Positions 11,401-54,870 of a stretch of DNA of 57,950 nucleotides are shown piece by piece. The notes beneath the pieces are model-generated. The model was not told where the DNA came from. It ran no database searches and worked only from the letters and a program-made list of their open reading frames with translations. Origin of the DNA: a virus (lineage: Duplodnaviria; Caudoviricetes); the IMG/VR virus record IMGVR_UViG_3300029787_000042, positions 1 through 57,950 of that record; one strand, written 5' to 3'. A program made the translations under genes and the position numbers. Each line of letters starts with the position of its first letter. Within the stretch, counting starts at the first letter, position 1.

Positions 11401-12764
11401 CGGCTGGATTAGATAGAGATGAAGCTATACAAGCGGTTGCTGACCAACTAGAAATAGATGTAGAAGATTTAACCACTGCTATTGGAAGTGTTGAGACTCA
11501 AGTAAGTGAACTAGAAACTACCATCCTAGACAGGATGAAAGAATACGAAGATGCAGGTATAGATAGAGACGATGCACTTGCACAAGCAATAGATGATGTA
11601 TCTGCCGAGTTAGGAACTACTAAAGATGATTTACTTACTCAGTTAGGAAAAACTGAAGAAAATATACGAGAGGACTTTGAAACTCGTTTTGAAGGTGTTG
11701 AAACCCAAGTTAGCGAGTTAGAAACCACCATCCTAGACAGGATGAAAGAATACGAAGATGCAGGTATAGATAGAGATGATGCACTTGCACAAGCAATAAA
11801 TGATGTATCAGATGATTTAGGCACCACTAAAGACGACTTGCTTACTCAGTTAGGAAAGACTGAAGAGGACATACGAGAAGATTTTAAAGCTCGTTTTGAG
11901 GGTGTTGAAACTCAAGTTAGTGAATTAGAAACTAACATATTAGAAAAATTACAAGAAAACGAAGCTGCGGGTATAGATCGTGATGAAGCTTTATCTAAAG
12001 CTATAGCTGATGTATCTGCTGAATTAGGCACTACAGAAGAAAATTTATTAAATGCATTAGGCACTACAGAAGAGAACCTACTAACTAGATTCGACGAAGG
12101 TTTGGCGGACTTAGGGCTTGATATAGAAACAGTAGCTAATTTTGTAGGTAAACCTGCTAGAGAAGTAACTGATTCAGATATAGATTTTGTAGCTTCTATA
12201 ATTGCAGAACAAGAAGTGCTTACTGACCCTACTTCTTTTGTTCCAACTGACCAACAATTACAGTATGATGTTAACAATGACGGCTTGATTGACATTAACG
12301 ATCAAATTATGCTAGAACAGTCTCTAGCAGGTCAAGATGTTGTGTTTGATCCTGACTCGCAGTTTGCAGCTACAGGATTATATGCATACAATGACGAGAT
12401 AGCTAGACAACAACGGGAACAAGAAACTAAAAGGCAAACTGATTTATTTACAAAAATAGATGAAGATAGAAATAAAGCCAATGCCCAAGCGTTATATAGA
12501 GATATTTTAGGGGCTTCTGATTTAGAAGGACGGACTGTGACTTCAACACCCGCAGCTCCCGCTAGAATAGACTATTTATATGATATAAGTGGTGATAGTA
12601 TATTTGCTACACCTCAACAAGAACAGTTGTTTGCTTCACCTTACGGAAGAAGGGCTGTCCAACAACCTACGCAGCAGCCTGTACAACCTACTAGGTTAGC
12701 AGCAGCAAAAGGTGGACTGCTTAGAAGAAACGATGAACTATTAAGATTACTTGGAGAAGACTAA
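5499..12764 (+). CDS. Giant acidic repeat-rich protein, putative internal virion/ejection protein (2421 aa)
   Basis: Uninterrupted ORF; Gly/Ala hydrophobic segments, D/E/P repeats, helical repeats, two Ca-binding-type loops; lies between nozzle and other ejection genes. Confidence 0.7.
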   Translation: MSGVVKAIKKVGRWIDDNIFQPIKDIGSWINEKIFKPVIKYAEAQIQAILDDPIKAIAQAIAAASGNPAAWLAVVNGVDAAIAGEDIDGILKAAAKGYVQGKAAGYAEELGTKVGTRAGDVFGDVVGDVVSKVVTSGTEQAINAIADGRDPLEAFKMGAISTGVGLTLGKINTELGGKYEELPDVVKNVIQASITDLVINGEVSDLTLARAITNSVITAEAVDEFLDKIGLGDWTPEDATDRMNEGTLGTITSVIQNTVAYAAAGESGSDAFGRTLVNRIVTEAVRSYKDGTLFEDMQDTFDRLSGKYTAARKAAENVDDFATNHVANVEEWNEIGKTIGDAATEVQALEDARDAARDAFSKAMEDAKDAMREGGVPDEDLLETLREAGEAAEAAFNDARATFEDNVTNVWEPRLTELEESFENAEAEYNSLVETYTEALDELNEATIESNEELAPRIASLNEAVATQIAPDADWEFYQEQNGFDTKEEAIQHYLSEGLASNAPTTQAALDYNNKIETQNAQNQIVQDVLDKTLGDGGERFEDMSLADKQNAYKALAEMAEKEGVPIEELDVNNDSQFAGIIDALALNGFLQVTTDSDGNQTITQIISTDPIEINYTDGLTNSDLANGSATLVYNNETGKYDTVFVPQQPKVYNGQIIAQDNNGEFYIEEGLTGEQRRYVDGTTGALYTKDENGVPIPVTNEEGEILNINSGIFLDSDPSEDTDPEAETETFGQFINDNTLGDTLQDLAENSPQDFVDIVNEGNLADTDNPDYTPPSWLLEALQDGANYLAGEGKWEVKNPAADWKRNLYANGVRAFAGMIDSFGGLVDRFNEDDPTKGSLRDFAADMETVGKGALTEGFNDSVTRMREFQEKLKSDRVDDPNTPIEYYEEDVYYENPKTGERVLLYEAGSYKSGDESKGTFWTGMQDVLKTAANHPSAFFGEYIVVEFMQEAAPLVVGGLGTLTAKFGLSAAKTLSPNLAKKLSEEVTESITRKVGLTSAAATDVGESVGANYAQAYEEAYATALKMANQEADILELSGQARENFLAEQEQGMREYALGLAINTSNIAGVATFASLFVGGMAADKLFVGGKVPEQFQGVFDEFVKRISEGGTIFLGEGGTEYFEEGIVTAYLKGQLYLIDPSINVSEEVGAAAMFGALIGSSVAGSAYGFSSTGDFVSNIVLYNNPEARTILDSVGDYDEQGLYDALNDAGLQDTVLINVMNTAYDAEYTSSAEATDAFAGTGLVPTQEDINALVNSGIGSSEGNTDALMDELIEYWTLNFGTEDDTDGDGIPNSEDATPNDPTATQLTPDEYVDYINQQSRNNAGVDVDGNPAPVAIVSYDPETGMYIIDYGPIGIDGDQQFQVLTPEEFFAQYANTLEGIADEGDVDEGDVDEGDVDEENVDEGDVDEENVDEGDVDEENVDEGDTTPPRPYLNNQGYTVTTNPDGTLVITDNEGNTIPPYEGGFDRATTYKPLTLIPHPDIEGKYTLVAADGETLGGTYNEDGTAFKNQRAPWDDNPDGVAPYDPSDNPDIAEDTDPDVDEGDVDPDPVVDPDPDADPVVDPDVDPDPVVDPDPDVDPDVDPDVDPDVDPDVDTEGSEFVTHPELDAALVPILAAIADVLGIGGTLEAAIESVATALGLDIGDVQEAVDDNTTLLEDTKEAVDNLVEAGTARDEAIAAIATQQGLDLAALIKLLETNGEGIVANATALSEIQTDVDDLIEAGTARDEAIAEIAKQQDIDVEALKNLLGDNATAISSIQESVDDLIEAGTARDEAIAAIAEQQGLDVEALTKLLNANAKSITGIQNTLDAMIEDDVARDEAIAAIAEQQGLDVEALTKLLNANAKSITGIQTTLDGMLEGDVSRDEAIASLAAQLGTDVESLTELLNANATSISGIQTTLDGMIEDGVERDEAIADLAAQLGTDVESLTTLLENNANAIADVETAVGLTADAIADAQEDIDTLVAAGLDRDEAIQAVADQLEIDVEDLTTAIGSVETQVSELETTILDRMKEYEDAGIDRDDALAQAIDDVSAELGTTKDDLLTQLGKTEENIREDFETRFEGVETQVSELETTILDRMKEYEDAGIDRDDALAQAINDVSDDLGTTKDDLLTQLGKTEEDIREDFKARFEGVETQVSELETNILEKLQENEAAGIDRDEALSKAIADVSAELGTTEENLLNALGTTEENLLTRFDEGLADLGLDIETVANFVGKPAREVTDSDIDFVASIIAEQEVLTDPTSFVPTDQQLQYDVNNDGLIDINDQIMLEQSLAGQDVVFDPDSQFAATGLYAYNDEIARQQREQETKRQTDLFTKIDEDRNKANAQALYRDILGASDLEGRTVTSTPAAPARIDYLYDISGDSIFATPQQEQLFASPYGRRAVQQPTQQPVQPTRLAAAKGGLLRRNDELLRLLGED
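9651..9782 (+). repeat. 15-bp tandem repeat encoding (DEGDV/DEENV) x ~9
   Basis: GATGAAGGTGATGTT-type units read directly. Confidence 0.95.
10116..10289 (+). repeat. Asp-Pro/Val low-complexity tandem repeat
   Basis: GATCCTGATGTT-type units encoding DPDV/DPDP/DPVV. Confidence 0.95.
10500..12100 (+). repeat. Long coding repeats with about 46-aa then 69-aa period
   Basis: Recurring RD(E/D)A(I/L)A; identical DNA blocks starting 10824 and 10962 (138 nt apart); near-identical blocks at 11521 and 11728 (207 nt apart). Confidence 0.9.
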
Positions 12765-14266
12765 TGAGTTGGTGGGAAACTTTTGTAGAAAATGCGAAAG
12801 CAGTTGGAGGAGATATAGCTGAGTTTGCTAGTTCTGAAAAAGGGATTGCTACACTTGGAGGTTTAGGTCTATCTTATGGCTTAGACAAACTAGGTTTAAC
12901 TACCCCTCAAACGCCTAAAATTGGATACCAAGGCAAAATACCTGAATATCAAGCTGTGCGTGAGCGTGTAGAAACAGATCCAAATCGTAGAGTGGGTGGG
13001 CAAAACCAAAGATATTTTAGTGATATGCAGTATGCAAAACGCCCTGACACTCCTCCACCTAGCGTAGCTGAAGCGCAAGCAAAAGCAAAGGCTCAAGCTG
13101 CTCAATTAGCACAACAAAATTTACCCCCTACAGGCATGGCTATGGGAGGTATTGCATCTGCTAACAAAGGTTATTTTTTAGGAGGTAAGACTGACGGAAT
13201 GGCTGATAAAGTTCCAGCACGTATTGATGGCACACAAGAAGCCCGTCTTAGTGATGGTGAGTTTGTTATACCTGCTGATGTTGTCAGTCATTTAGGTAAT
13301 GGTAACTCTGATGCAGGAGCACAACAATTGCACGGTATGATGAGTAACGTACGTGAAGCACGTACAGGAAACCCTAAACAAGGTAAACAAATAGACCCTA
13401 AGAAGTTTATGCCTAAAAAAGCGGGTGGCCCTATACAAAAATTTCAAGAAGGCGGTGAGACTGATCCTACAGTAGGTAAAGCAGCGGGCACAGAATCTTC
13501 ACTGTCTAACTGGGCAGGTGATTATGTAACTGACATGTTAGGTAAAGGTAAGGCTTTAGGTAGTGAAGCTTACCAAGCGTACCAAGGTCCATTGACAGCA
13601 GGCGCAACTGATTTACAAAACCAAGCATTTTCTGGTATTGGTTCTTTAACTACTCCTGAAAATATGGGTGCGTACACCCCTCAAACGTTTGGCGCAGAGC
13701 AAGCTCAACAATATATGAATCCTTATCTAATGGCTTCTCTTAATCCTCAATTAGATGAAGCTAGACGGCAAGCTGAAATAGACCGTGTGGCTAATGCAGG
13801 TAGAATGACACGGGCGGGCGCATTTGGTGGTTCTCGTCAAGCACTTATGGATATGGAAGGACAACGTAATTTACAAGCTAATTTAGCTAATATAACTGGA
13901 CAAGGCTATGCGCAAGCCTATGACAGGGCGCAACAACAATTTAACACTGAGCAAGGACGTAATATGGAAGCTCAAAATATGGCTAATCAATATGGATTTG
14001 ATGTACTAGGAGGCCAAGCTTCAGCAGGCGCTACTCAACGAGGTATTGCTAGTGAAGGTATAGCGGCGGATAGAGCTGCTTTTGAAGAAGAACGTGACTT
14101 CCCGTACAGACAAGTTCAATACATGCAGTCTCTATTACAAGGATTACCTTTAACAGCACAATCGTATTCTTATACCGAACCTAGTAAATTATCTAAACTT
14201 TTAGGAGGAGCCGCTGCTGGTGGTGGTTTAGCTGATTTATTTGCTGAATATGGAGTAGAAATATGA
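12764..14266 (+). CDS. Putative DNA-ejection/pilot protein with GEFV domain
   Basis: DGMADKVPA...LSDGEFVIPADVV domain; Q-rich YMNPY...GAFGGSRQ region resembling podovirus DNA-transfer proteins. Confidence 0.7.
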   Translation: MSWWETFVENAKAVGGDIAEFASSEKGIATLGGLGLSYGLDKLGLTTPQTPKIGYQGKIPEYQAVRERVETDPNRRVGGQNQRYFSDMQYAKRPDTPPPSVAEAQAKAKAQAAQLAQQNLPPTGMAMGGIASANKGYFLGGKTDGMADKVPARIDGTQEARLSDGEFVIPADVVSHLGNGNSDAGAQQLHGMMSNVREARTGNPKQGKQIDPKKFMPKKAGGPIQKFQEGGETDPTVGKAAGTESSLSNWAGDYVTDMLGKGKALGSEAYQAYQGPLTAGATDLQNQAFSGIGSLTTPENMGAYTPQTFGAEQAQQYMNPYLMASLNPQLDEARRQAEIDRVANAGRMTRAGAFGGSRQALMDMEGQRNLQANLANITGQGYAQAYDRAQQQFNTEQGRNMEAQNMANQYGFDVLGGQASAGATQRGIASEGIAADRAAFEEERDFPYRQVQYMQSLLQGLPLTAQSYSYTEPSKLSKLLGGAAAGGGLADLFAEYGVEI

Positions 14267-16143
14267 TGTTACCACAAGGTCTAGGTACTTTAGATAACCG
14301 AATAAATAGTAAAGCTGACGCTCTTAGAGCTAATCCTAGAGCTATGCAGGGTGTACAACAAAAAGCAAATGCCGCTGCTAGTAAAGGGACAGTACCTCCT
14401 GATTTATTAGAAGTTCTTGCTTTACAAAAAGTAGCTTCTGAAAAAGCTATGGCAAAAAACCAACTTGCGTTATCTATGGAACAAAACCCTGCAACTGTAG
14501 CTGCGCAACTAGAACAAAATGTTATGTCTCTTACTAAAGATGATTTAGTAAAACAAACCGCAGGTATTATGGGCGAAAGAGATAAAAGAAGAAAACAACA
14601 AATGTCTATGGCAAAACCTCCACAACAAGGCAGACCTGCGGGACTACCTTCTGCTCCACGTCCTCCCATGCAAATGGCGGCCAAAGGAGGAATTATTGGT
14701 TATAATATAGGAGGAAAAGTAGATAAGATAAAAGCCTTACTAGCACAACTAGGCCGTAAATTTACTCAGCAAGAAATGGATGATATTGTTCTAGCAAGTG
14801 GAAATAGCCCAGAAATACTGGCTTTTCTAGAACAAAGCCAAGGGTATATTAGCCAAGCAGAAAACGCTCAGATAGATGCGGCGATAGATGCGGCTGCACC
14901 TAAACAAAAAGATACTCTTCCTGCTTCTATGGTTACTGCCCCTACCCCCACACCTAGTGCAGGTATATCTTCTGTTGCTCCTACTAAAACTCCTGTAGAC
15001 ACTACGGAAATGCCTGATGGGACCATTTTATTTAATAACCAACAGATGAGGGCAGCTAGTGCAAAAGCAGGACTACCTAACGCATCGGGATCAACATTAG
15101 GATCAAAAGCAGGGCTACCTCCAATAGGTCAACAAAACCAACAGGGTCAACAAGGCCAAAGTGGATTTAAAGTGCTAGGTAAAAAAGGAGCTGGAGGTCT
15201 AAGTTTAGACAGTGTTATGGGTAAAGACGGAGCAGGCTTGGCCGCAGTAGCTCCAAAAGATGTAAGCTCTACAAGAGTTAGTGATACTTTAGATCCTGCG
15301 GTTAAAGAAAACATAAACAAAGGTATAGCCTTAGATCCTGATAAAGGTAGAAAAGATGCCCAACGTGAATTTGATACTCGTTATGACGTTGAAGGTAATA
15401 AGAAAAGACGTGAGGCTAACTTAAAAGAACTTAGAGATATAACTGAAAGTGATTTTGACCCTAAAAAACGTAGGGATAGAAGGTTAAGTGCATTTTTACG
15501 TGGTGTTGCTAGAGGTGGCGCAGGACTAGGGTATGGAGCTGACGCTTTAGCAAGAGAAGAAGATAAGCAAAGAAAAGAACTTTATGATCGCAAAACAAAA
15601 GAACTTAATATTGATGACGCTAACATGAAAGCTACAGTAGTTGATTTAAAAGACTCAGATAATCAATCAGCCAAAATATATGAGGCTTTAGTTAAAGATA
15701 AACGTGATGCATTAGGGCTAGCTATTACTTTAGGTACATCTGATTTACAAGCTTACGATAGAGAATACCAACAAATAATAACTGCAAACAACAATGCAAT
15801 TAAAAATAAGTTAGAAGCTATTAAGATAAAAGGTAGCCAAGACTATAATAAAATACAAGCTGGAATAAAAGGTGAAATGTCTAGGACTAATACGCTGTCT
15901 ATTTATAACAAAATAGGTGAGTCTTTAGAAAAACAAGAGCAAGAAATAAGAAGAATATTTTTAGAAGAAGGAGGCGTGAGGCTAACGACTGCTATTAGTG
16001 CTGTAGACGGTGGAGGTAACGTAACAGATGAACAAGCAGAACTTGTTGCCTCATACAAAGCTAAAGTTAGAAACGCTCTGTTAGATGCAGGTATTGAAGA
16101 GAAAAGAAAAAGATTAATGGCTGATTATGAGGCTCTAAAGTAA
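14263..16143 (+). CDS. Putative internal virion/ejection protein
   Basis: 626 aa; Q/P-rich linkers and helical C-terminus; located in the ejection cluster. Confidence 0.65.
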   Translation: MMLPQGLGTLDNRINSKADALRANPRAMQGVQQKANAAASKGTVPPDLLEVLALQKVASEKAMAKNQLALSMEQNPATVAAQLEQNVMSLTKDDLVKQTAGIMGERDKRRKQQMSMAKPPQQGRPAGLPSAPRPPMQMAAKGGIIGYNIGGKVDKIKALLAQLGRKFTQQEMDDIVLASGNSPEILAFLEQSQGYISQAENAQIDAAIDAAAPKQKDTLPASMVTAPTPTPSAGISSVAPTKTPVDTTEMPDGTILFNNQQMRAASAKAGLPNASGSTLGSKAGLPPIGQQNQQGQQGQSGFKVLGKKGAGGLSLDSVMGKDGAGLAAVAPKDVSSTRVSDTLDPAVKENINKGIALDPDKGRKDAQREFDTRYDVEGNKKRREANLKELRDITESDFDPKKRRDRRLSAFLRGVARGGAGLGYGADALAREEDKQRKELYDRKTKELNIDDANMKATVVDLKDSDNQSAKIYEALVKDKRDALGLAITLGTSDLQAYDREYQQIITANNNAIKNKLEAIKIKGSQDYNKIQAGIKGEMSRTNTLSIYNKIGESLEKQEQEIRRIFLEEGGVRLTTAISAVDGGGNVTDEQAELVASYKAKVRNALLDAGIEEKRKRLMADYEALK

Positions 16144-16145
16144 TA

Positions 16146-19100
16146 ATGGCCTTATATGAAGTACAGGGGCCAGATGGCGTTGTGTACGAAGTAGAGGGAC
16201 CAGAAGGCGCTTCAGATTCACAGCTTATAAATGCCCTACAAATGCATCTTGGTAGTACATCCGTGTCTCCTGTACCCACGCCTGTCTCCTCCCCTACTAG
16301 TAAACGAAAGACCTTTGAAGAACTTAAACAAGAAGAGTTAGACAAAATAAGGTCAAGAAGAATAATTGAACCTGAAGACACCGGATTTTTTGAAAACTTA
16401 GCTCTTGGTACAGGTGCAGGTTTTGTCGGTACAGGAGAAAGCATAGCATTAGGTGCAGCTACTGTCTTAGAGGAAGAGGCGGAGACAGAGGCCCGTAAAA
16501 AAATACAAGAGGCGTTTGAACAATATACTCCAGAAGGTGGAGATAAAGATTCTTTTGCCTATGGACTTGGAAGTGCGCTAGGATCTATAGGAGGTTTTGG
16601 TCTTGGCTCCGCAGCAATTGCAGGTACGGCAGGGTTAGCGGGATTGTCTGCCCCCGCAGCGGCGGTTGCAGGTGGTCTTGGTGTAGCAGCATTAGGCGTA
16701 GGTGCTTCTAGAGGCGAACAAAGTGAACGTGCGCGAGCCGCAGGAGCCTCTGTAGAAGAACGAGAAGATGCAGTAAACTCAGTGCTTATAAACATAGCAG
16801 GAGCCTCAGAAGCAATACCTTTAACACGATTGTTTAGAACTGTAGACATACCTATGTTAGGTAAAGTCATAGACAACATTGGTCCTAAAAAAACTGAAGG
16901 TATAGGGGCTACACTATATAACGCAGGGCTAACAGGTGGTATAGAAGGCATTCAAGAAGTAGGTCAACAAATAGCGCAAAATTTAACTGAACAAGAATAC
17001 AATGCCCTTGCTAAAACCTTTGAAGGCACAGGAGAGTCTTTTACTTATGCTTCTATTGCCGCAGGTTTACTTGACTTATTCTTTGGTAGAAGAAAACGAG
17101 CTGACATAACTAGAGATGACGCAAGTACAGATCCTTTAAGTTCTTTTACTAAAGATGAAGACATTGAAGGGCTATTACCTGCGCCATCTGATGATATATT
17201 AGTAAGTCCTACTGGAGAAGCCTTTACACGCGAACAAGAAGAAGAAGTTAGAAGATCGCAAGAAAGATCCAGAAGAGAACAAGAAGCAGAAGATGAAATA
17301 ACATTAGGAGACATGCCTAGTGCCGCAGTGCGCATACCTAGAGAACAACGCGATTTATTTCCCGAAGAACTAGAACAAGCAGAAAGAACAAGCCCTACTG
17401 AAATTAGTGATGTTGAAATAGCTGACGCTATGGCGGAACGTGCTGCTGAAGAAGAAAGAACAAGACGTATAGAAGACGATGATCAGATAAAAGAACAACC
17501 TGACGTAATAGACGAGGTTAGATACTCTGATTTTCAAGATCGTACAATAGCAGAAAGAACCGCTGCTGAAGATATTGAATTAGCAGAAATGCAACGTCAA
17601 GAGGATGCGGCTAAAGAAGCTGACGATTTAGAAATACAACGCATGGTTATTGCTGATGAAGATAAGGCAGGTTTGCAAGATATAGAAGCGCAAATAAAAG
17701 AACGTAGACCAAGTGACCCGCAACAACCTGCACTTAAAGATGTACAAAGAAAACAAAGAACTAGACGTAGACCTCAAACATTAGCTGACACCGTTGCTGA
17801 ACCTAGGACATTAGACAGTGCGCCTGAAATAGCAGACGTAGGAAAGATATTAAAAGATGCTAACATATCAGAAGCAACGCAAGCCCTAATACCTGACTCT
17901 TTAAAAACTAAACCTAAACAAAGACTCAACGCAACTGATACTGGAGACGTTTTTACACCGCCCCGGAAAACTCCAAAGAAAGCTACTACACCTAAACAAG
18001 TTAAGACTGAAGTAGAAGCTCCTGTTGATATTAGTTCTGACATAAGGGGAAGTATAGAGTTTCCCACTGCCGTACCTCGTGGCGCAGAGTTTACTAACCC
18101 TAATGATGTGACAGCTATAAATACATTACTTAATAAGAAAATACCTCGTGATGAAAAAGGCGTTGAACAAACTGCCCAAACATACCTTAAAAGATTTAAA
18201 CGCCCTGCTGACGCTTTTACAGCTATAGCTTTTGAAATTGCAGAAAACACACCTAAGTTTAGAGCACAAAAAGACACTCCTACTTCTGAAAAAGCTAAGT
18301 TTGCTGGTACAGGTGGCTTTAATACTAAGGCTACATTGCAGTGGATAGAAAATAATTTAAGTCCTGACGCTAAAACTGAAATAGATAGACGTATTGTAGA
18401 ACAACAAAAAGAATCAACTAAAGTAGAAAAAGATGTTACAACGCGAGCTAAACAAGAACAAGAAGGTACTAAGATAAAACAACGTGATACTAAAACTGCT
18501 ATAGCAGTAGACAGTGCTACAGATGGTAAAGCAAAAGTTGTTGGTACGTCCAAACCTAAAAAGAAAGCTGAAAGAGTAGTTAAAGAAACTCCTAGAGCAG
18601 AGAGAAAACTAAGTAAAGAAGAGCAAGAATTAGCGCGTGTAGCTGAGATAGTAGAAAGGGTACAGGGTAAAAGAGGTAAAAATGCAAAGCCTGCATTAGA
18701 TAGAACCATGCCCCCTGCAAAGCTAAAAGAAAAGCTTGCTACGGATACACAAAAGTTTTTGGATGCAGGGGGAGAGATAGACGTACTTAATTTAAAAGTT
18801 ACTCCCGAAACCATTGTGGAGTTAGACTCAGACATACCTAAATCAGTAATAACTTTATTACGTAGTGGAGATATTAAAGGCGCTTTAGAAGAATTAGCTA
18901 AAGTGTCCACAGACAAACGTGTTAAGCAAATAGCTAAAGCACTAGCGAATAACATGGGTACAACTAAGATTAAAATAGGTAAGTTGGGAGAGGACACATT
19001 AGGACAGTTTGACCCTAAGAATAATACTATAACCCTAGATTCTACTAATGGTATGACTATTCATACCTTACTGCATGAGGCTACTCACGCGGCTACTATG

Positions 19101-22100
19101 TCTGTGTTATCTAACAAAGGTCACCCTGTCACTAAACAACTACAGAAGCTATACGACTCGGTATTACCTTTACTTGATACTACTTATGGAGCTACAAATT
19201 TAGAAGAGTTTGTAGCGGAGGTGTTTAGTAACCCTACTTTTCAGCATAGGTTGTCTCAAATAACTACTAAAGGCGAGTCTATATCAGCGTTACAAAAGTT
19301 TTTACGTGTTATAACTAACTTTATTCGTAGCCTTATAGGCATGGATACTAAACCTGTAGATTCTGCATTGGATTCCGCTGATGCATCAATAGAAGCTATA
19401 TTATACCCATCTCCTGAAACTCGTAACATAGGCGCATTTTATAACCTTACTCCTAAAGGAATACAGAAAATATTAGATAAGGTGGTAGAAGGAGGAAGAT
19501 CTTTAAGTAAAAATATAAAAGAACGTAAAGAACTTAGTGCTTCAGGAAAAAGAAGTTTTTTTAATCAGTTTTTAGATTTTTTAAGTGGTACGTCTCCTGA
19601 CATAGCTAAAAACCTACTATTAGGTTTTAGTAATACCTTGGTATTAGGGGAAGTAGCAAGAGAAGCAGGGTTTAAAAATTTAGTTATAGATATGCATGAA
19701 GCATTTCTTAGGGGTAGAAGGCGCATTGCCAAAAGTAATGAGGAAGTATACAAACTTCTAGAGAAGGTAGATGGACTACTAGCCTCAGAAAACAAACTTA
19801 AAGGACTGCTAAATAAAATAGCTTTAAGCACTGAGTATGGAGCTACTATATATCAAGTAGACCCTAGACTAACGGAAACTGAAGCTACAAAACGTTATGG
19901 TAAAGACCCAGAAAAAATGCGTGTGTGGAAAGCACAACGTGGAGATTGGAACGCTTTAGGTGAAAAAGGGCAAGAAGCTTACATATTATTACAAGAACAC
20001 TACAAAAAGAAGTATGAAGAACTTAAAGCCACTATTAATGGCGAGCTAGAGAACTTAATGCTTGCATCTGAAAGTAAAGATAGCACTCCTACCGAACAAC
20101 AAAAAGCCAACGTTAAGGCTGCGACAGATTCATTAAAGACGCAAGTTTACAATAAGTTATTTGAGTCGGCAGAGTTAGAAGTATACTTTCCTTTAGTGCG
20201 TGAAGGCGACTACAAGCTATCCTATAGGGTCAAAGAACCTGCGATTAAAGGTGGTACTGATTACGTAGTGTTAATGTTCGGATCTGAGAAAGAACGTAAA
20301 GTAGCAGAAGCGGCACTTAAAAAAGAATCTAATGTAATAAATTCTAGTATAGAGAAACAAGACCCTGAAACCCAATTATATAAGGCTTTTGACAAAGCTC
20401 CTTCTAGTTCTTTTGTAGCCCAAACGCTGCAAATACTAAATGCTAACAACATAAGTAAAGACACGCAAAGCCAAGTATTAAAATTATTTGTTGAGTCTTT
20501 ACCTCAAACATCTTTTGCTAAGTCTTTACAAAAACGTCAGAATATTGAAGGGTTTATACCTGATGTGTTTGATGGTGTGCGTATAAAAGGAATTTCTTTA
20601 GGACACCAAATAGCTCGTTTACAAACGAACAATGAATTAAAGCGTATATACCAAAGTATAGAAGATACCGCTTGGCAAGAAAGTAATCCTGTACCGGAAA
20701 AGGAATTTAATAGATTGAAGCTTGAAGTTGGTAGGCGTGTAAACTTTGCTATCATGGGAGCTAAAAACAAAAACATAGAAAATTATGCTAGGTTGGCTAA
20801 TCAAATAGCTTTCTTATATACAATAGCTACTAACCCCTCATCCGCAATAATCCAAACTGCTCAAGTGCCCATGATAGTATACCCGTTGTTGGGCGCTAGG
20901 TATGGGTATGGTAAGGCAGAAGAGGCGGTACGTGAAGGCGCAAGACTAGCTATGGGATCTGCGGATTATATATCTCCTAAGATGGATGATAACTATAATG
21001 TTAGCGACACAGGTGAATTTACTGTAAAGAAAGAAGTTATAGAAAAAATTAGAAAAGCCTTTAAGGGCAGACCTAAAAAAGCAGATAGAATAATAGCAGA
21101 GATAGAAAACTTAATTCCTTTAGTAAAAGCTTCTTTAGAGTATTCTGCGTTACATAGAGGGTACGTGGCTGACCAGTTAAATTTAGATGAATATGTCAGT
21201 AAACCTTCTCCTAAGGGGCTAGCTTTAAAAGAAAGAGGTGAAAGTACTTTAAATTACATAACTTCTAAAGGAGCTATACCTTTTACTGCGGCGGACAAAT
21301 TTAATAGGCAAACCACATTAATAGCTACATACAATTTAGTATTAAAAGATATGAACGATAGCAAAGCCGCAGGGAAAAAATACTATAGTCATAGAGAAGG
21401 AAAGATGATGACTGTCCCTGCGACTAGAAGTGAAGCTATGCGGCAAGCGGCTAGGGATGCTAACCATTTTGCGGACAGGTCAAACGGAGGAACTGTTATA
21501 GAAACAGGGGCAAGGTATGCCCAACAAGATCTTAGACGTGTAGCTATGATGTATAAAAACTACGGTTTAGCCATGAACTACCTAATGATACGTTCTATAT
21601 TTAGGTCTTTAGATGGGCAGGTTGACGCTAAAGCTAGACGAGTAGCGGCAAAACAAATATTAGGAATAACTTTAGCTTCTATATTCTTTGCAGGCGTAAG
21701 AGGCGCTCCTTTTATTGGAATGGCTATACTTATAGCAGACCAATTCTTAGAACCTGATGAGGAAGATGCCGAAACGATAATGCGTAAGACTTTAGGAGAG
21801 ATGGCTTATAAAGGGCCAGTGTCTTATATAACAGGTGTGGATGTTAGTACAAGGTTAAAGTTAAATGATTTATTTATACAAGAGAACAGATTTTCTCAAG
21901 ATGATTCTTTAGAAGAGCAAGCATTTCGGTATGTGGGTGGCCCTGCGTGGAGTACAGCTAAAAGATTTTACCGAGCAGGTCAAGATGCTCGTGCTGGAAA
22001 CTATGTAAGAGCTATAGAAGGAACAGTTCCTCAAGGCATAACTAATCTAGTAACTGTATTTAGACAACGCTTCTTAGAAGATGGAATGAAGACTAGAAGA

Positions 22101-22481
22101 GGAGATGTCATTTTAGAAGATGTAACTTGGGGAGAGGATTTTGCAAAGATAATAGGGTTTCCTTCTACCAGATATACCTTCCAACAAGATTTTGCTAGAG
22201 TAGAGAAAGGCATGCAGAAAGCCATAAAAGAAAAAAAATCAAAATTACAAAAAAGGTATTTTGTTGCGGAGAGATTTGGAGATTGGGATGAACTATCAAA
22301 GGTTGTGGATGAGATGGATGAATTTAATATTAAACATCCTAGTGTAGCTATAACTCTAGAATCTCTTGAAAGGTCATTAAAATCTCACGAAAGAACTTCA
22401 GGAGTTATGCAAGGAGGAGTTTTGTATAACCCTAAACTGGAAGAAGAAAGACAACGCAGACTAGATGAATATAAGAAATAA
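16146..22481 (+). CDS. Large polyvalent/internal virion protein with zincin-like metallopeptidase (2111 aa)
   Basis: LLHEATH...EEFVAE zincin motif; YFPLVREG resembles the PLxRFG domain; Gly/Ala-rich hydrophobic N-terminal region; last gene of the late arm. Confidence 0.75.
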   Translation: MALYEVQGPDGVVYEVEGPEGASDSQLINALQMHLGSTSVSPVPTPVSSPTSKRKTFEELKQEELDKIRSRRIIEPEDTGFFENLALGTGAGFVGTGESIALGAATVLEEEAETEARKKIQEAFEQYTPEGGDKDSFAYGLGSALGSIGGFGLGSAAIAGTAGLAGLSAPAAAVAGGLGVAALGVGASRGEQSERARAAGASVEEREDAVNSVLINIAGASEAIPLTRLFRTVDIPMLGKVIDNIGPKKTEGIGATLYNAGLTGGIEGIQEVGQQIAQNLTEQEYNALAKTFEGTGESFTYASIAAGLLDLFFGRRKRADITRDDASTDPLSSFTKDEDIEGLLPAPSDDILVSPTGEAFTREQEEEVRRSQERSRREQEAEDEITLGDMPSAAVRIPREQRDLFPEELEQAERTSPTEISDVEIADAMAERAAEEERTRRIEDDDQIKEQPDVIDEVRYSDFQDRTIAERTAAEDIELAEMQRQEDAAKEADDLEIQRMVIADEDKAGLQDIEAQIKERRPSDPQQPALKDVQRKQRTRRRPQTLADTVAEPRTLDSAPEIADVGKILKDANISEATQALIPDSLKTKPKQRLNATDTGDVFTPPRKTPKKATTPKQVKTEVEAPVDISSDIRGSIEFPTAVPRGAEFTNPNDVTAINTLLNKKIPRDEKGVEQTAQTYLKRFKRPADAFTAIAFEIAENTPKFRAQKDTPTSEKAKFAGTGGFNTKATLQWIENNLSPDAKTEIDRRIVEQQKESTKVEKDVTTRAKQEQEGTKIKQRDTKTAIAVDSATDGKAKVVGTSKPKKKAERVVKETPRAERKLSKEEQELARVAEIVERVQGKRGKNAKPALDRTMPPAKLKEKLATDTQKFLDAGGEIDVLNLKVTPETIVELDSDIPKSVITLLRSGDIKGALEELAKVSTDKRVKQIAKALANNMGTTKIKIGKLGEDTLGQFDPKNNTITLDSTNGMTIHTLLHEATHAATMSVLSNKGHPVTKQLQKLYDSVLPLLDTTYGATNLEEFVAEVFSNPTFQHRLSQITTKGESISALQKFLRVITNFIRSLIGMDTKPVDSALDSADASIEAILYPSPETRNIGAFYNLTPKGIQKILDKVVEGGRSLSKNIKERKELSASGKRSFFNQFLDFLSGTSPDIAKNLLLGFSNTLVLGEVAREAGFKNLVIDMHEAFLRGRRRIAKSNEEVYKLLEKVDGLLASENKLKGLLNKIALSTEYGATIYQVDPRLTETEATKRYGKDPEKMRVWKAQRGDWNALGEKGQEAYILLQEHYKKKYEELKATINGELENLMLASESKDSTPTEQQKANVKAATDSLKTQVYNKLFESAELEVYFPLVREGDYKLSYRVKEPAIKGGTDYVVLMFGSEKERKVAEAALKKESNVINSSIEKQDPETQLYKAFDKAPSSSFVAQTLQILNANNISKDTQSQVLKLFVESLPQTSFAKSLQKRQNIEGFIPDVFDGVRIKGISLGHQIARLQTNNELKRIYQSIEDTAWQESNPVPEKEFNRLKLEVGRRVNFAIMGAKNKNIENYARLANQIAFLYTIATNPSSAIIQTAQVPMIVYPLLGARYGYGKAEEAVREGARLAMGSADYISPKMDDNYNVSDTGEFTVKKEVIEKIRKAFKGRPKKADRIIAEIENLIPLVKASLEYSALHRGYVADQLNLDEYVSKPSPKGLALKERGESTLNYITSKGAIPFTAADKFNRQTTLIATYNLVLKDMNDSKAAGKKYYSHREGKMMTVPATRSEAMRQAARDANHFADRSNGGTVIETGARYAQQDLRRVAMMYKNYGLAMNYLMIRSIFRSLDGQVDAKARRVAAKQILGITLASIFFAGVRGAPFIGMAILIADQFLEPDEEDAETIMRKTLGEMAYKGPVSYITGVDVSTRLKLNDLFIQENRFSQDDSLEEQAFRYVGGPAWSTAKRFYRAGQDARAGNYVRAIEGTVPQGITNLVTVFRQRFLEDGMKTRRGDVILEDVTWGEDFAKIIGFPSTRYTFQQDFARVEKGMQKAIKEKKSKLQKRYFVAERFGDWDELSKVVDEMDEFNIKHPSVAITLESLERSLKSHERTSGVMQGGVLYNPKLEEERQRRLDEYKK

Positions 22482-46770: not shown

Positions 46771-46968
46771 ATGGCTACTACCGTCTTTGACGTGCTAACA
46801 AAACAAATCGAGGATGCTACATTCTCAGCAAAAGAGTTTCTTGAAAATGGTTCGGCTACAGATTACGCGAACTATCGAGAAGTGGTTGGTTTGATACGAG
46901 GTCTTCAAACTAGCTTATCTTTCGTAAAAGACCTTTCGCGAAATTATATGGATGATGACAATGACTGA
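46771..46968 (+). CDS. Small conserved head-module protein
   Basis: YREVVGLIRGL; AAGGA RBS; between portal and GroES. Confidence 0.7.
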   Translation: MATTVFDVLTKQIEDATFSAKEFLENGSATDYANYREVVGLIRGLQTSLSFVKDLSRNYMDDDND

Positions 46969-47341
46969 TTTAACACCAAACCCCGAAGTAATTGAAGAAG
47001 AGTTAGAACATCAAATACCTATTCCTGTAGGTTATAGGATTTTGATAGCAATGCCTGAAGTAGAAGATACTTACGGCGATAGCGGAATTATCAAATCAAG
47101 TAAGGAAATGCATCACGATTATATTATGTCTACTATTGGACTTGTATTAGATATAGGTGGACAAGCTTATTCGGATAAAGACCGTTTCCCTGATGGCCCT
47201 TGGTGCAAGGTAGGAGATTATGTCATGTTTCGTGCTAACACAGGAACAAGATTTAAAGTAGGTGGTGTCGAGTATCGGTTAATGAATGATGACTCGGTTG
47301 AAGCAATAGTTAACGATCCTCGTGGCGTTACACGAGTGTAA
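46952..47341 (+). CDS. groES: Co-chaperonin GroES-like
   Basis: P.GYRILI, SGII mobile loop, GLVLDIG, KVGDYVMF...GT.FK..G.EYRLMNDDSVEAIV. Confidence 0.88.
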   Translation: MMTMTDLTPNPEVIEEELEHQIPIPVGYRILIAMPEVEDTYGDSGIIKSSKEMHHDYIMSTIGLVLDIGGQAYSDKDRFPDGPWCKVGDYVMFRANTGTRFKVGGVEYRLMNDDSVEAIVNDPRGVTRV

Positions 47342-52806: not shown

Positions 52807-52980
52807 ATGCGTAAAAAATACGGTAAGACTAAAGAAATAACTAAACGGCAGAAAGAAACACTTAAAAAACATTCTGTACGTCATAGCAAAAAACATATGT
52901 CTAAAATGAAAAAAGCTATGCAATTAGGAAAGACTTTTAATCAAGCCCACAAAGACGCTATGAAAAAAGTAGGTAAATAA
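52807..52980 (+). CDS. Small K/H/M-rich basic protein (57 aa, not in ORF track)
   Basis: Hand translation MRKKYGKTKEITKRQKETLKKHSVRHSKKHMSKMKKAMQLGKTFNQAHKDAMKKVGK; AAGG RBS; TAATG coupling to the next gene. Confidence 0.75.
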   Translation: MRKKYGKTKEITKRQKETLKKHSVRHSKKHMSKMKKAMQLGKTFNQAHKDAMKKVGK

Positions 52981-53669
52981 TGACTACATCAGGTACTACT
53001 GCATTTAACATGGAGTTTACAGAAATTGCTGAAGAGGCATTTGAACGCGCAGGGCGTGAAATGCGTTCAGGGTATGATCTAAGAACTGCTAGAAGGTCTA
53101 TGAATTTGTTAACTATAGAGTGGCAAAATCGTGGAATTAATATGTGGACTATAGATAATGGAACTGTAGATCTTGTAAAAGGCCAAACTACTGCTTATGA
53201 CCTTCCTACAGATACAGTGGATTTGTTAGAACACCAAATACGAACTAATCAAGGCAATACAGCTACTCAGTCTGATCTTACTATAAGTCGTATAAGTGTA
53301 AGTACATACGCTTCAATTCCTAACAAGTTAACACAAGGTAGACCAATTCAAATTTATATAGAGAGGCTTCGTGATCGTCCTAAGTTTCATGTATGGCCTT
53401 TACCAGACAATAATGACTACAAACTATATTATTGGAGAATGAGGCGTATTGAAGATGCCGGTAGTGGTGTGCAAACCGCAGACATGAATTTTAGGTTTTT
53501 TCCTTGTTTAGTAGCAGGGTTAGCTTACTATATATCTCTTAAACTGCCTGAAGCTGTAGAGCGCGTACCTATGCTAAAAGCAATGTATGAAGAACAATTT
53601 GAATTAGCCGCAGCGGAAGACAGAGAAAAAACTTCTGCTAGGTTTGTACCTCGTATGAGTTATCAATAA
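52980..53669 (+). CDS. Putative head-tail adaptor
   Basis: EIAEEAFERAG, TARRSMNLL..EWQNRG, GRP, VWPLPD, CLVAGLAYY. Confidence 0.7.
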   Translation: MTTSGTTAFNMEFTEIAEEAFERAGREMRSGYDLRTARRSMNLLTIEWQNRGINMWTIDNGTVDLVKGQTTAYDLPTDTVDLLEHQIRTNQGNTATQSDLTISRISVSTYASIPNKLTQGRPIQIYIERLRDRPKFHVWPLPDNNDYKLYYWRMRRIEDAGSGVQTADMNFRFFPCLVAGLAYYISLKLPEAVERVPMLKAMYEEQFELAAAEDREKTSARFVPRMSYQ

Positions 53670-54237: not shown

Positions 54238-54870
54238 ATGAATTACACTGAGTTAAAAACTAACATTCAAGATATTTGTGAGACTAGTTTTACAAACGAC
54301 CAGCTTGCTATGTTTACTCAACAGGCGGAACAAAAAATATATAGCGGTGTGCAACTACCCGCACTTCGTAAAGTAGATGAAGGGCCAGTGGTTCAAACAA
54401 ATAAGTTATATACTTTACCTAGCGATTATTTGTATACATACAGCCTAGCTATTATAAGTAGTAGTACTTATACCTATTTACTAAACAAAGATGTTAATTT
54501 TTTACGCGAAGCATACCCAATCAATACCAATGCTCATTACGGAACACCCAAATTTTATGCTTATTATAGTGATACTAAATTAGAATTTGCTCCAACACCC
54601 GATGCTAATTATGAAATAGAACATGTTTACGGATATTATCCTACATCTATAGTTACAGCTAGCACTACTTGGTTAGGCACAAACTTTGACTCTGCGCTAT
54701 TAAATGGGGCGTTAGTAGAAGCTATAAGATTTATGAAAGGTGAGCCAGATATAATAGCTAACTACGAAAAAATGTATGCTTTATCTATGGGACTACTTAA
54801 AAATATGGGTGATGGCAAACTACGAGAAGATGTGTATCGTTCTGGACAATACAGAGTTTCTCCAACATAA
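54238..54870 (+). CDS. Putative second adaptor/tail-assembly protein
   Basis: MNYTELKTNIQD, QAEQKI, GTPKFYA, APTPD, TTWL..N...ALLNGAL. Confidence 0.65.
   Translation: MNYTELKTNIQDICETSFTNDQLAMFTQQAEQKIYSGVQLPALRKVDEGPVVQTNKLYTLPSDYLYTYSLAIISSSTYTYLLNKDVNFLREAYPINTNAHYGTPKFYAYYSDTKLEFAPTPDANYEIEHVYGYYPTSIVTASTTWLGTNFDSALLNGALVEAIRFMKGEPDIIANYEKMYALSMGLLKNMGDGKLREDVYRSGQYRVSPT

Follow-up and report, generated by a model that had tools for sequence, protein, structure and literature searches.

A 57,950-nucleotide stretch of viral DNA (Caudoviricetes; IMG/VR record IMGVR_UViG_3300029787_000042), here called the window, contains an open reading frame (ORF) of 500 amino acids (aa) at 12764..14266 on the plus strand. 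This ORF hosts a short conserved element, the AxGG-GEFV module, and opens an ejection-protein cluster of four genes. It overlaps with both of its neighbors, at its start with the stop of an ORF of 2421 aa and at its end with the start of one of 626 aa, and a 2111-aa ORF comes next. The original prediction, made from the letters alone, had described a tape-measure-like mini-domain bracketed by four xxGG motifs at 13136-13456, corresponding to residues 125-231 of the 500-aa protein (NLPPTG-MAMGG-IASANKG-YFLGG-KTDGMADKVPARIDGTQEARLSDGEFVIPADVVSHLGNGNSDAGAQQLHGMMSNVREARTGNPKQGKQIDPKKFMP-KKAGG-PIQK-FQEGG). Re-reading of the translation showed that the four motifs (MAMGG, YFLGG, KKAGG, and FQEGG) had been quoted correctly.

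The ORF encodes a module-bearing ejection-cluster protein fused to a downstream protein of the phrog_4287 type, and its parts follow one another on the plus strand. Residues 54-91 (12923..13036) form an N-terminal block of invariant alignment columns, GYQGxIPEYxAVRERV...RRxGGxNQRYFxDxQY, which is common to stand-alone module proteins as well (P0133, P0147, P0157, P0174, P0221, L046, and L082). The module itself, delineated by conservation and by alignment and hhalign comparison with tape-measure C-termini, spans residues 125-217 (13136..13414). It is followed by a fusion linker containing KKAGG and FQEGG (residues 218-245; 13415..13498), which is missing from split forms of the protein, and by a C-terminal helical domain containing YMNPY and GAFGGSRQ (residues 246-472; 13499..14179), the counterpart of separate ~300-aa proteins in relatives. 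Within the module, the order of elements is MAMGG, YFLGG, TDGMAD-VPA, an insertion (IDGTQEAR), LSDGEFVIPADVVSHLG, a second insertion (NGNSDAGA), the helix QQLHGMMSNVREARTG, and QGKQIDPKKFMP.

GG dipeptides are not enriched in the 500-aa protein (11 observed against 8.2 expected by composition), so the case for the motifs rests on their conservation and not on the count of four. Conservation was assessed in a full-length alignment of 14 homologues with 62-79% identity and in a wider alignment of 110 sequences. Residues 126-217 were nearly invariant across the 14 homologues, with A126, G128, G129, L139, G141, T143-D148, and the run 158-186 identical in all. Still invariant among the 110 sequences were G128, G129, L139, D144-M146, D148, G165-V168, P170-D172, G178-G180, and S182. 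Conservation in both alignments indicates that the first two xxGG motifs are part of the conserved block. The third (KKAGG; G221 and G222) was invariant solely among fused forms, while FQEGG was variable, being replaced by FEEGG, FNVGG, NQTPK, or FSGVT in other homologues. The block includes the GEFV core (residues 165-168; 13256..13267), whose G, E, and V do not vary within the window's family, among podovirus relatives, or in six tape-measure proteins.

The original prediction had likened the stretch to a motif pattern in the lambda tape-measure protein gpH, and translation of lambda gene H confirmed that pattern: near the C-terminus it reads ...FHFATGGFTGTGGKYEPAGIVHRGEFVFTKEATSRIGVGNLYRLMRGYATGGYVG..., giving the pattern FATGG...GEFV...YATGG. 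Since a collection of diverse gpH-like C-termini yielded near-identical Escherichia coli sequences, the motif regions of six annotated siphophage records (lambda, Faja, Maselop, Nitrincola 1M3-16, Wamburgrxpress, and Sasha) were used instead as a tape-measure profile. The window-family profile matched these six C-termini over 40 columns (hhalign probability 94.7%, E 5.9e-8). Against lambda gpH alone the same columns aligned at E 8.4e-4 and a probability of 24%, with LSDGEFVIPADVVSHLGNGN paired with VHRGEFVFTKEATSRIGVGN. PHROG tape-measure families provided the same connection through relatives. The module of gp065c from Caulobacter phage GB2A matched tape-measure PHROGs 25241 (8.1e-8), 6090, 3547, and 5448, and gp81 of Pelagibacter phage HTVC104P matched nine; direct matches of the window module alone were weak (phrog_3547, 0.015). 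The proposed homology to tape-measure C-termini is supported, and we read the stretch as a short module of the C-terminal part of many siphophage tape measures that has diverged here and acquired two insertions.

Alignment of 12 mixed sequences gave the consensus FAxGGxVxGPGTGTSDSIPAxLSDGEFVxxAxAVxxxGxGxxxxxLxAL, in which G11, G47, E48, and V50 (module numbering) were invariant and G23, D30, A34, G60, and L71 nearly so. G47, E48, and V50 remained invariant in an alignment of 63 sequences. The shared core consists of AxGG, 8-20 residues with a near-invariant Asp and Pro-Ala, GE[FY]V, and a helix with conserved Leu. The window's family departs from it by its two insertions, IDGTQEAR before LSDGEFV and NGNSDAGA after LG. 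In the six tape-measure records, the distance of the motif from the C-terminus ranged from 8 to ~600 residues. When the GB2A module was used as a tblastn query, 177 phage records were recovered, led by phages of Mycobacterium (71), Gordonia (20), Vibrio (20), and Arthrobacter (10). Among 60 listed rows of these records, 48 were annotated as tape measures, although some labels (GB2A, DSL-LC04) may themselves rest on the motif.

Searched against PDB sequences, the tape-measure profile matched chains of lambda (8iyk and others), Douge gp16, and JBD30 gp46, the last at residues 1010-1074 (8rk3) with E 8e-10. No relevant PDB match by sequence was obtained with the window module, the window-family profile, or the full-length profile. 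Mycobacteriophage Douge gp16 (8zdo/8zdq) has the module twice, at a spacing of ~450 residues (957-1026 and 1409-1470), and YAxGGFLSGxGTG opens both copies.

The module is very widespread. A phmmer search of 1.84 billion representative proteins with a 117-aa stretch as query returned matches in 9183 proteins at E<=1e-3, 5828 at <=1e-10, and 396 at <=1e-30. Among the best 150 of the 9183, from which architectures were counted, the module lay within 7 residues of the C-terminus in 126 (proteins of 120-820 aa, some of the short entries possibly being fragments) and was internal in 24. No Pfam model covers the AxGG-GEFV motif, and no description of it was found in the open-access literature, whether by motif strings or by topic. 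A further arrangement was seen in HTVC104P gp81 (locus L004, 5888-7189) and its relatives P0405-P0518, a family of ~300-430 aa encoded between the portal and capsid genes. These proteins combine four to six xxGG motifs and a long acidic stretch with a canonical module of the tape-measure type, which sits at the extreme C-terminus. On its sequence features, the gp81-type family is a third architectural context for the module.

The fusion of the module to the C-terminal domain was examined at split-form loci, namely L046 and L082 (2 of 80 IMG/VR loci) and the cultured phages MinM2 (Synechococcus), GB2A, and DSL-LC04. The module protein and the YMNPY protein were separate genes at all five. In L046 and L082, a module protein of 212 or 322 aa is followed, after at most 10 bases, by a separate protein of 304 or 302 aa, respectively, with YMNPY and GAFGGGR. 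The corresponding pairs are 294 aa + 316 aa in MinM2, 580 aa + 333 aa in GB2A, and 759 aa + 294 aa in DSL-LC04. The DSL-LC04 294-aa ORF matched the C-terminal part of the window protein (BLASTP, 6e-18), and the window ORF matched MinM2 (tblastn, 1e-17). At all five loci the genes are arranged as [module protein]-[YMNPY protein]-[~430-670 aa]-[large protein]. PHROG 4287, annotated 'DNA ejection protein', matched the separate counterparts of the C-terminal domain, MinM2_23 (2.1e-19) and GB2A gp064c (1.6e-9). The direct match of the window part is weak (0.054) and the chain through these relatives is clear, which places the C-terminal half in PHROG 4287 by homology.

The fusion is genuine and maintained across the window's clade, being lineage-specific and in frame. 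Of 8000 candidates scored in a homologue search with the 500-aa ORF, 7951 reached E<=1e-3, and the best 120 of these were 395-695 aa long. Stand-alone module proteins, whose N-terminal block reads GYQGxIPxY...RRPGxxGRRYFTDxQY, differ from one another in the linker and terminate with ...QGKQI(N/D)PxKF(M/L)P(V/A/T). In fused proteins the linker also varies; it carries additional AxGG-type motifs, reading MAQGGIAxAYNYGG in most fused homologues and shortened to KKAGG in the window. The original prediction had cast the ORF as a cleavable polyprotein. What stands of this is the joining of the module to a YMNPY/GAFGGSR domain that relatives encode as a separate protein; the fusion is demonstrated, while its cleavage as a polyprotein stays a hypothesis.

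The 500-aa protein had no match in Pfam, NCBIfam, or PHROGs, including the tape-measure models PF06791, PF09718, and TIGR01541, whereas lambda gpH, the positive control, matched all tape-measure family models tested. By these family models, the window protein itself is not a tape measure. Lambda gpH (~738-795; PHROG 24) nevertheless resembles it in having AxGG, GEFV, a helix, and a second xxGG, with a significant profile-profile match; this motif falls inside NCBIfam TIGR01541. The two proteins differ in that the window protein is 500 aa long, matches none of TMP_2, Tape_meas_lam_C, or TIGR01541, bears two insertions in its module, and is encoded in a genome with an SU10-type portal and adaptors. 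The lambda motif adjoins a region that is described as proteolytically processed. According to PMC12617516, gpH is processed near the motif, and the site and catalyst are stated to be not known. The C-terminal piece is described as retained in the particle and bound to gpI.

Two further tape measures were compared. The predicted 'hook' of JBD30 gp46 (1022-1066 in 8rk3) shares the motif at profile level. For it, PMC11445458 predicts two helices and a short hairpin, in agreement with our low-confidence model of the module. The authors speculate that, once the protein has been cut at 1066, the hook fastens the tape measure in the baseplate; they proposed the cut site from a PeptideCutter Arg-C prediction. 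Unlike the podovirus-type proteins, most of which end right after the module, the JBD30 segment continues into a C-terminal coiled coil that binds the baseplate, and the hook was not seen experimentally. T5 pb2 is cut after R1127 (PMC10038345), which in translation reads FVPR|AEGG. The cut thus falls directly before an AxGG motif, between a hydrophobic stretch and the C-terminal fragment. Homology of this T5 region to the module was nonetheless rejected (hhalign 0.09%), the AEGG at the cut site being all that is shared, and the T5 fragment has a metallopeptidase-type motif that is absent from the window module. Myophage tape measures, too, are suspected of being cleaved (PMC11972413, PMC10966104).

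On the podovirus side, the T7 (gp14/15/16) and P22 (gp7/20/16) ejection proteins resemble the window's cluster as packed late genes that follow tail genes and have a very large multi-domain protein last. The family of the window's C-terminal domain, as noted, carries an ejection-protein annotation. No match in sequence or fold was found between the window protein and solved ejection proteins. In the available text of a review (PMC8954989) and a structural study (PMC12002296), 'tape measure' appears only where siphophage delivery is contrasted or cited, and the latter states that podophages lack counterparts of tape-measure components. HTVC104P gp81 is similar in having a module, here canonical and C-terminal (GPGTGTSDSIPALLSDGEFVF...), with several xxGG motifs before it, but differs in its gene position, its acidic stretch, and the lack of a YMNPY partner downstream. 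The task of podovirus ejection proteins is that of tape measures, to be first out of the particle and to build a channel for DNA. The module is a concrete sequence link between them and a handle for mutagenesis, and its place beside the lambda processing event makes gpH an easy test bed for its function.

Structure prediction gave little order for the module. In the AlphaFold model of the full-length protein (110 sequences), the predicted local distance difference test (pLDDT) was below 50 at residues 126-147 and 164-181. Confident parts were the blocks at 51-120 (pLDDT 72-94) and helices at 311-350 and 356-459 (pLDDT 73-92). For the module alone, predicted from the more diverse 63-sequence alignment, pLDDT averaged 53, and the elements seen were a short hairpin and two helices (53-59 and 64-83). 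These models would argue for something other than a compact enzyme-like domain. Prediction of a homotrimer of residues 119-222 scored 0.15 and 0.06 against a mark of 0.42, which speaks neither for nor against self-association. Foldseek of the full-length model against the PDB returned nothing at E<=0.001. For the module-only model, Foldseek returned 0 PDB matches and VIA-align a best Z of 3.7, which is noise among 48,161 chains; because the models are of low confidence, the module fold searches carry no weight. Against viral predicted structures (BFVD), the full-length model had 11 matches at E<=0.001, nine of them unnamed, the aligned part of the model not being specified. Two longer matches, from uncultured phages, were named 'Peptidoglycan binding-like' and 'Intramolecular chaperone auto-processing domain' (S74).

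We favor, at about even chances, a structural docking ('hook') role for the module in ejected proteins that form a channel. The module would then not be an enzyme but an assembly or docking element, ordered only in the assembled particle or during ejection. By analogy with the predicted JBD30 hook, it would keep an ejected, channel-forming protein fixed by its end at the distal tail channel, which is the most concrete of the available models, and the flanking xxGG turns would be part of the docking element. Homology, fusion, gene order, and extreme conservation are established here, whereas the docking role, like any processing beside the module, is inferred. Several observations weigh against it. 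No phage structure resolves the segment: the modelled parts are residues 818-849 of lambda gpH (the only gpH residues in the lambda models; PMC10721106), 1658-1699 of Douge gp16, and the last 33 residues of the JBD30 protein. The JBD30 hook is itself an AlphaFold-multimer prediction joined to the authors' speculation (PMC11445458), and the T5 segment that forms an experimentally seen hook has no significant similarity to the module by hhalign. Placement of the module ~600 aa from the end in Maselop and twice in Douge is a poor fit to a terminal anchor. Very strong conservation, including that of the invariant Glu and near-invariant Asp, would be compatible with a chemical role as well, and the low AlphaFold confidence may reflect a shallow alignment instead of disorder.

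The original prediction had proposed such a chemical role, with the module as reader or (auto)protease for the xxGG motif, the fused ORF as a polyprotein cut at its linker, and the same chemistry processing lambda gpH. Several features would suit it. The lambda processing region (~700-748) ends in FATGG, which opens the module, and the T5 cut also abuts a GG motif. The two halves of the window ORF are separate at all five split loci, and the extra AxGG motifs were gained exactly in the linker of fused forms. Motifs of the xxGG type are conserved in both flanking ejection-cluster proteins, and the HTVC104P gp81 family has several more of them before its one C-terminal module. The invariant Glu and nearly invariant Asp would make a carboxylate-based mechanism possible. 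Against this, the window module and its MinM2, GB2A, and HTVC104P relatives matched no peptidase family in Pfam, NCBIfam, or PHROGs, and no confident fold was predicted. S163, D164, S175, and H176, invariant in the window's own family, are replaced in tape-measure versions, and the wider family has no conserved Ser, His, or Cys. The first AxGG belongs to the module itself and is not a distant target. T5 is cut before its GG and not after it, in a region without detectable homology, and the title of Zweig and Cummings 1973 points to host involvement in T5 cleavage. Lambda moreover has a separate candidate in tail assembly protein K, which matched NlpC/P60 (3.4e-13) and, in part, Prok-JAB (6e-5; 23.3 bits, cut-off 25). 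If a GG-directed protease exists in lambda, K would on these domain matches be a candidate distinct from the module; among the window proteins scanned, neither an NlpC/P60 nor a JAB domain was found. Iyer, Burroughs, and Aravind are said to have proposed lambda K (JAB) and I (ubiquitin-like) as a processing pair in 2006. The proposed catalytic or reading role was therefore not borne out, and we consider it quite unlikely. We rate just as low a related idea, in which AxGG-GEFV is a self-contained processing cassette of tape measures and podovirus ejection proteins, with the AxGG turn scissile and GEFV either catalysing the cut or presenting the site to a GG-directed peptidase such as lambda K. 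Were it true, maturation at the linker would make a natural polyprotein of the fused ORF in the window, and the 50-year-old question of how gpH becomes gpH* would gain a sequence-defined answer, testable in lambda.

Somewhat less improbable, though still doubtful, is that the module, like the xxGG motifs, serves as an incorporation signal, a short peptide by which ejected proteins are loaded into the particle through contact with an assembly partner (a tail chaperone, scaffold, portal, or the capsid interior), with no role in ejection. The motif recurs in otherwise unrelated proteins that have to be packed into the head or channel of the virion, namely tape measures, podovirus ejection proteins, and HTVC104P gp81, and single xxGG motifs are conserved in neighboring proteins of the ejection cluster. 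Low predicted order is also typical of peptide motifs that fold on binding. Yet tape measures go into tails and ejection proteins into heads by way of different partners, which makes a single shared receptor hard to name, and no partner was identified in this analysis. A degenerate LysM-like or other cell-wall-binding or muralytic element, acting on peptidoglycan after ejection, is the explanation to which we give very little credence. By eye, LSxGE[FY]V..A..V..(I/L)G....L..(L/M)N resembles the start of a LysM repeat, and hhalign set tSDsI.A.LSNGEfV on NSDSITYRVRKGDSLS of MltD, but not significantly (probabilities 0.12% and 0.24%). A LysM-bearing cluster was among the nearest named protein-atlas clusters at a score of 0.77, below the lead threshold, while Pfam LysM (PF01476) matched none of 12 diverse module sequences even at E<=10. 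The predicted order of hairpin, helix, and helix is not the beta-alpha-alpha-beta of LysM. T5 pb2C has a motif with reported muralytic activity, whereas the Ur-lambda paper describes lambda virions as without a peptidoglycan hydrolase and gpH as without known enzymatic activity. A LysM identity was accordingly dropped as unsupported by the Pfam and hhalign searches.

The genomic setting makes the description of the cluster as 'podovirus-type' reasonable, as judged from genes alone, and we take the source to be a marine phage with a short tail, similar to SU10. The window encodes a large terminase, an SU10-type portal, a family A DNA polymerase, an SNF2 helicase, and a DUF927 protein, together with a major head protein, a scaffold-like coiled-coil protein, tail-fibre-like proteins, a holin, and an M15 endolysin. 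No tail tube, sheath, or tape-measure PHROG was matched among the 24 late-region ORFs scanned. Two paralogous genes for SU10-type adaptors (PF24175) lie at 52980-53669 (6.2e-10) and 54238-54870 (3.1e-20), with a 121-aa ORF between them. Directly after the portal gene is a gene for a GroES-like co-chaperonin (46952-47341; phrog_3188, 6.5e-12).

Within the ejection cluster, the 2111-aa protein (16146-22481) has a C-terminal DarB-like region (phrog_10089, 4.3e-37) and a sub-threshold match to LPD39 (1.3e-4). It also matches weakly, around an HExxH at residues 915-982, the putative metallopeptidase family DUF6782, which makes this protein a candidate virion-borne peptidase acting in trans. The 2421-aa upstream protein ends in a two-part tail of AAKGGLL and the short, helix-like NDELLRLLGED (12696..12761, plus strand). 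Counterparts keep this tail though their bodies differ greatly, as SRGGQV...NDMLLRILGELE in L046 (2165 aa) and FAKGGMV...NDELLKILKG in L082 (1811 aa). The downstream 626-aa protein contains the double motif MAAKGGIIGYNIGG (14671..14715, plus strand), conserved as KMSGGGIVGFAPGG in L046 (667 aa) and AMAAGGIVGYAGPEG in L082 (655 aa). Its MinM2 counterpart, of 533 aa, has a GYADGGFL motif near the start. Single xxGG motifs in the proteins neighboring the module are conserved in the window, L046, and L082, and partly in MinM2.

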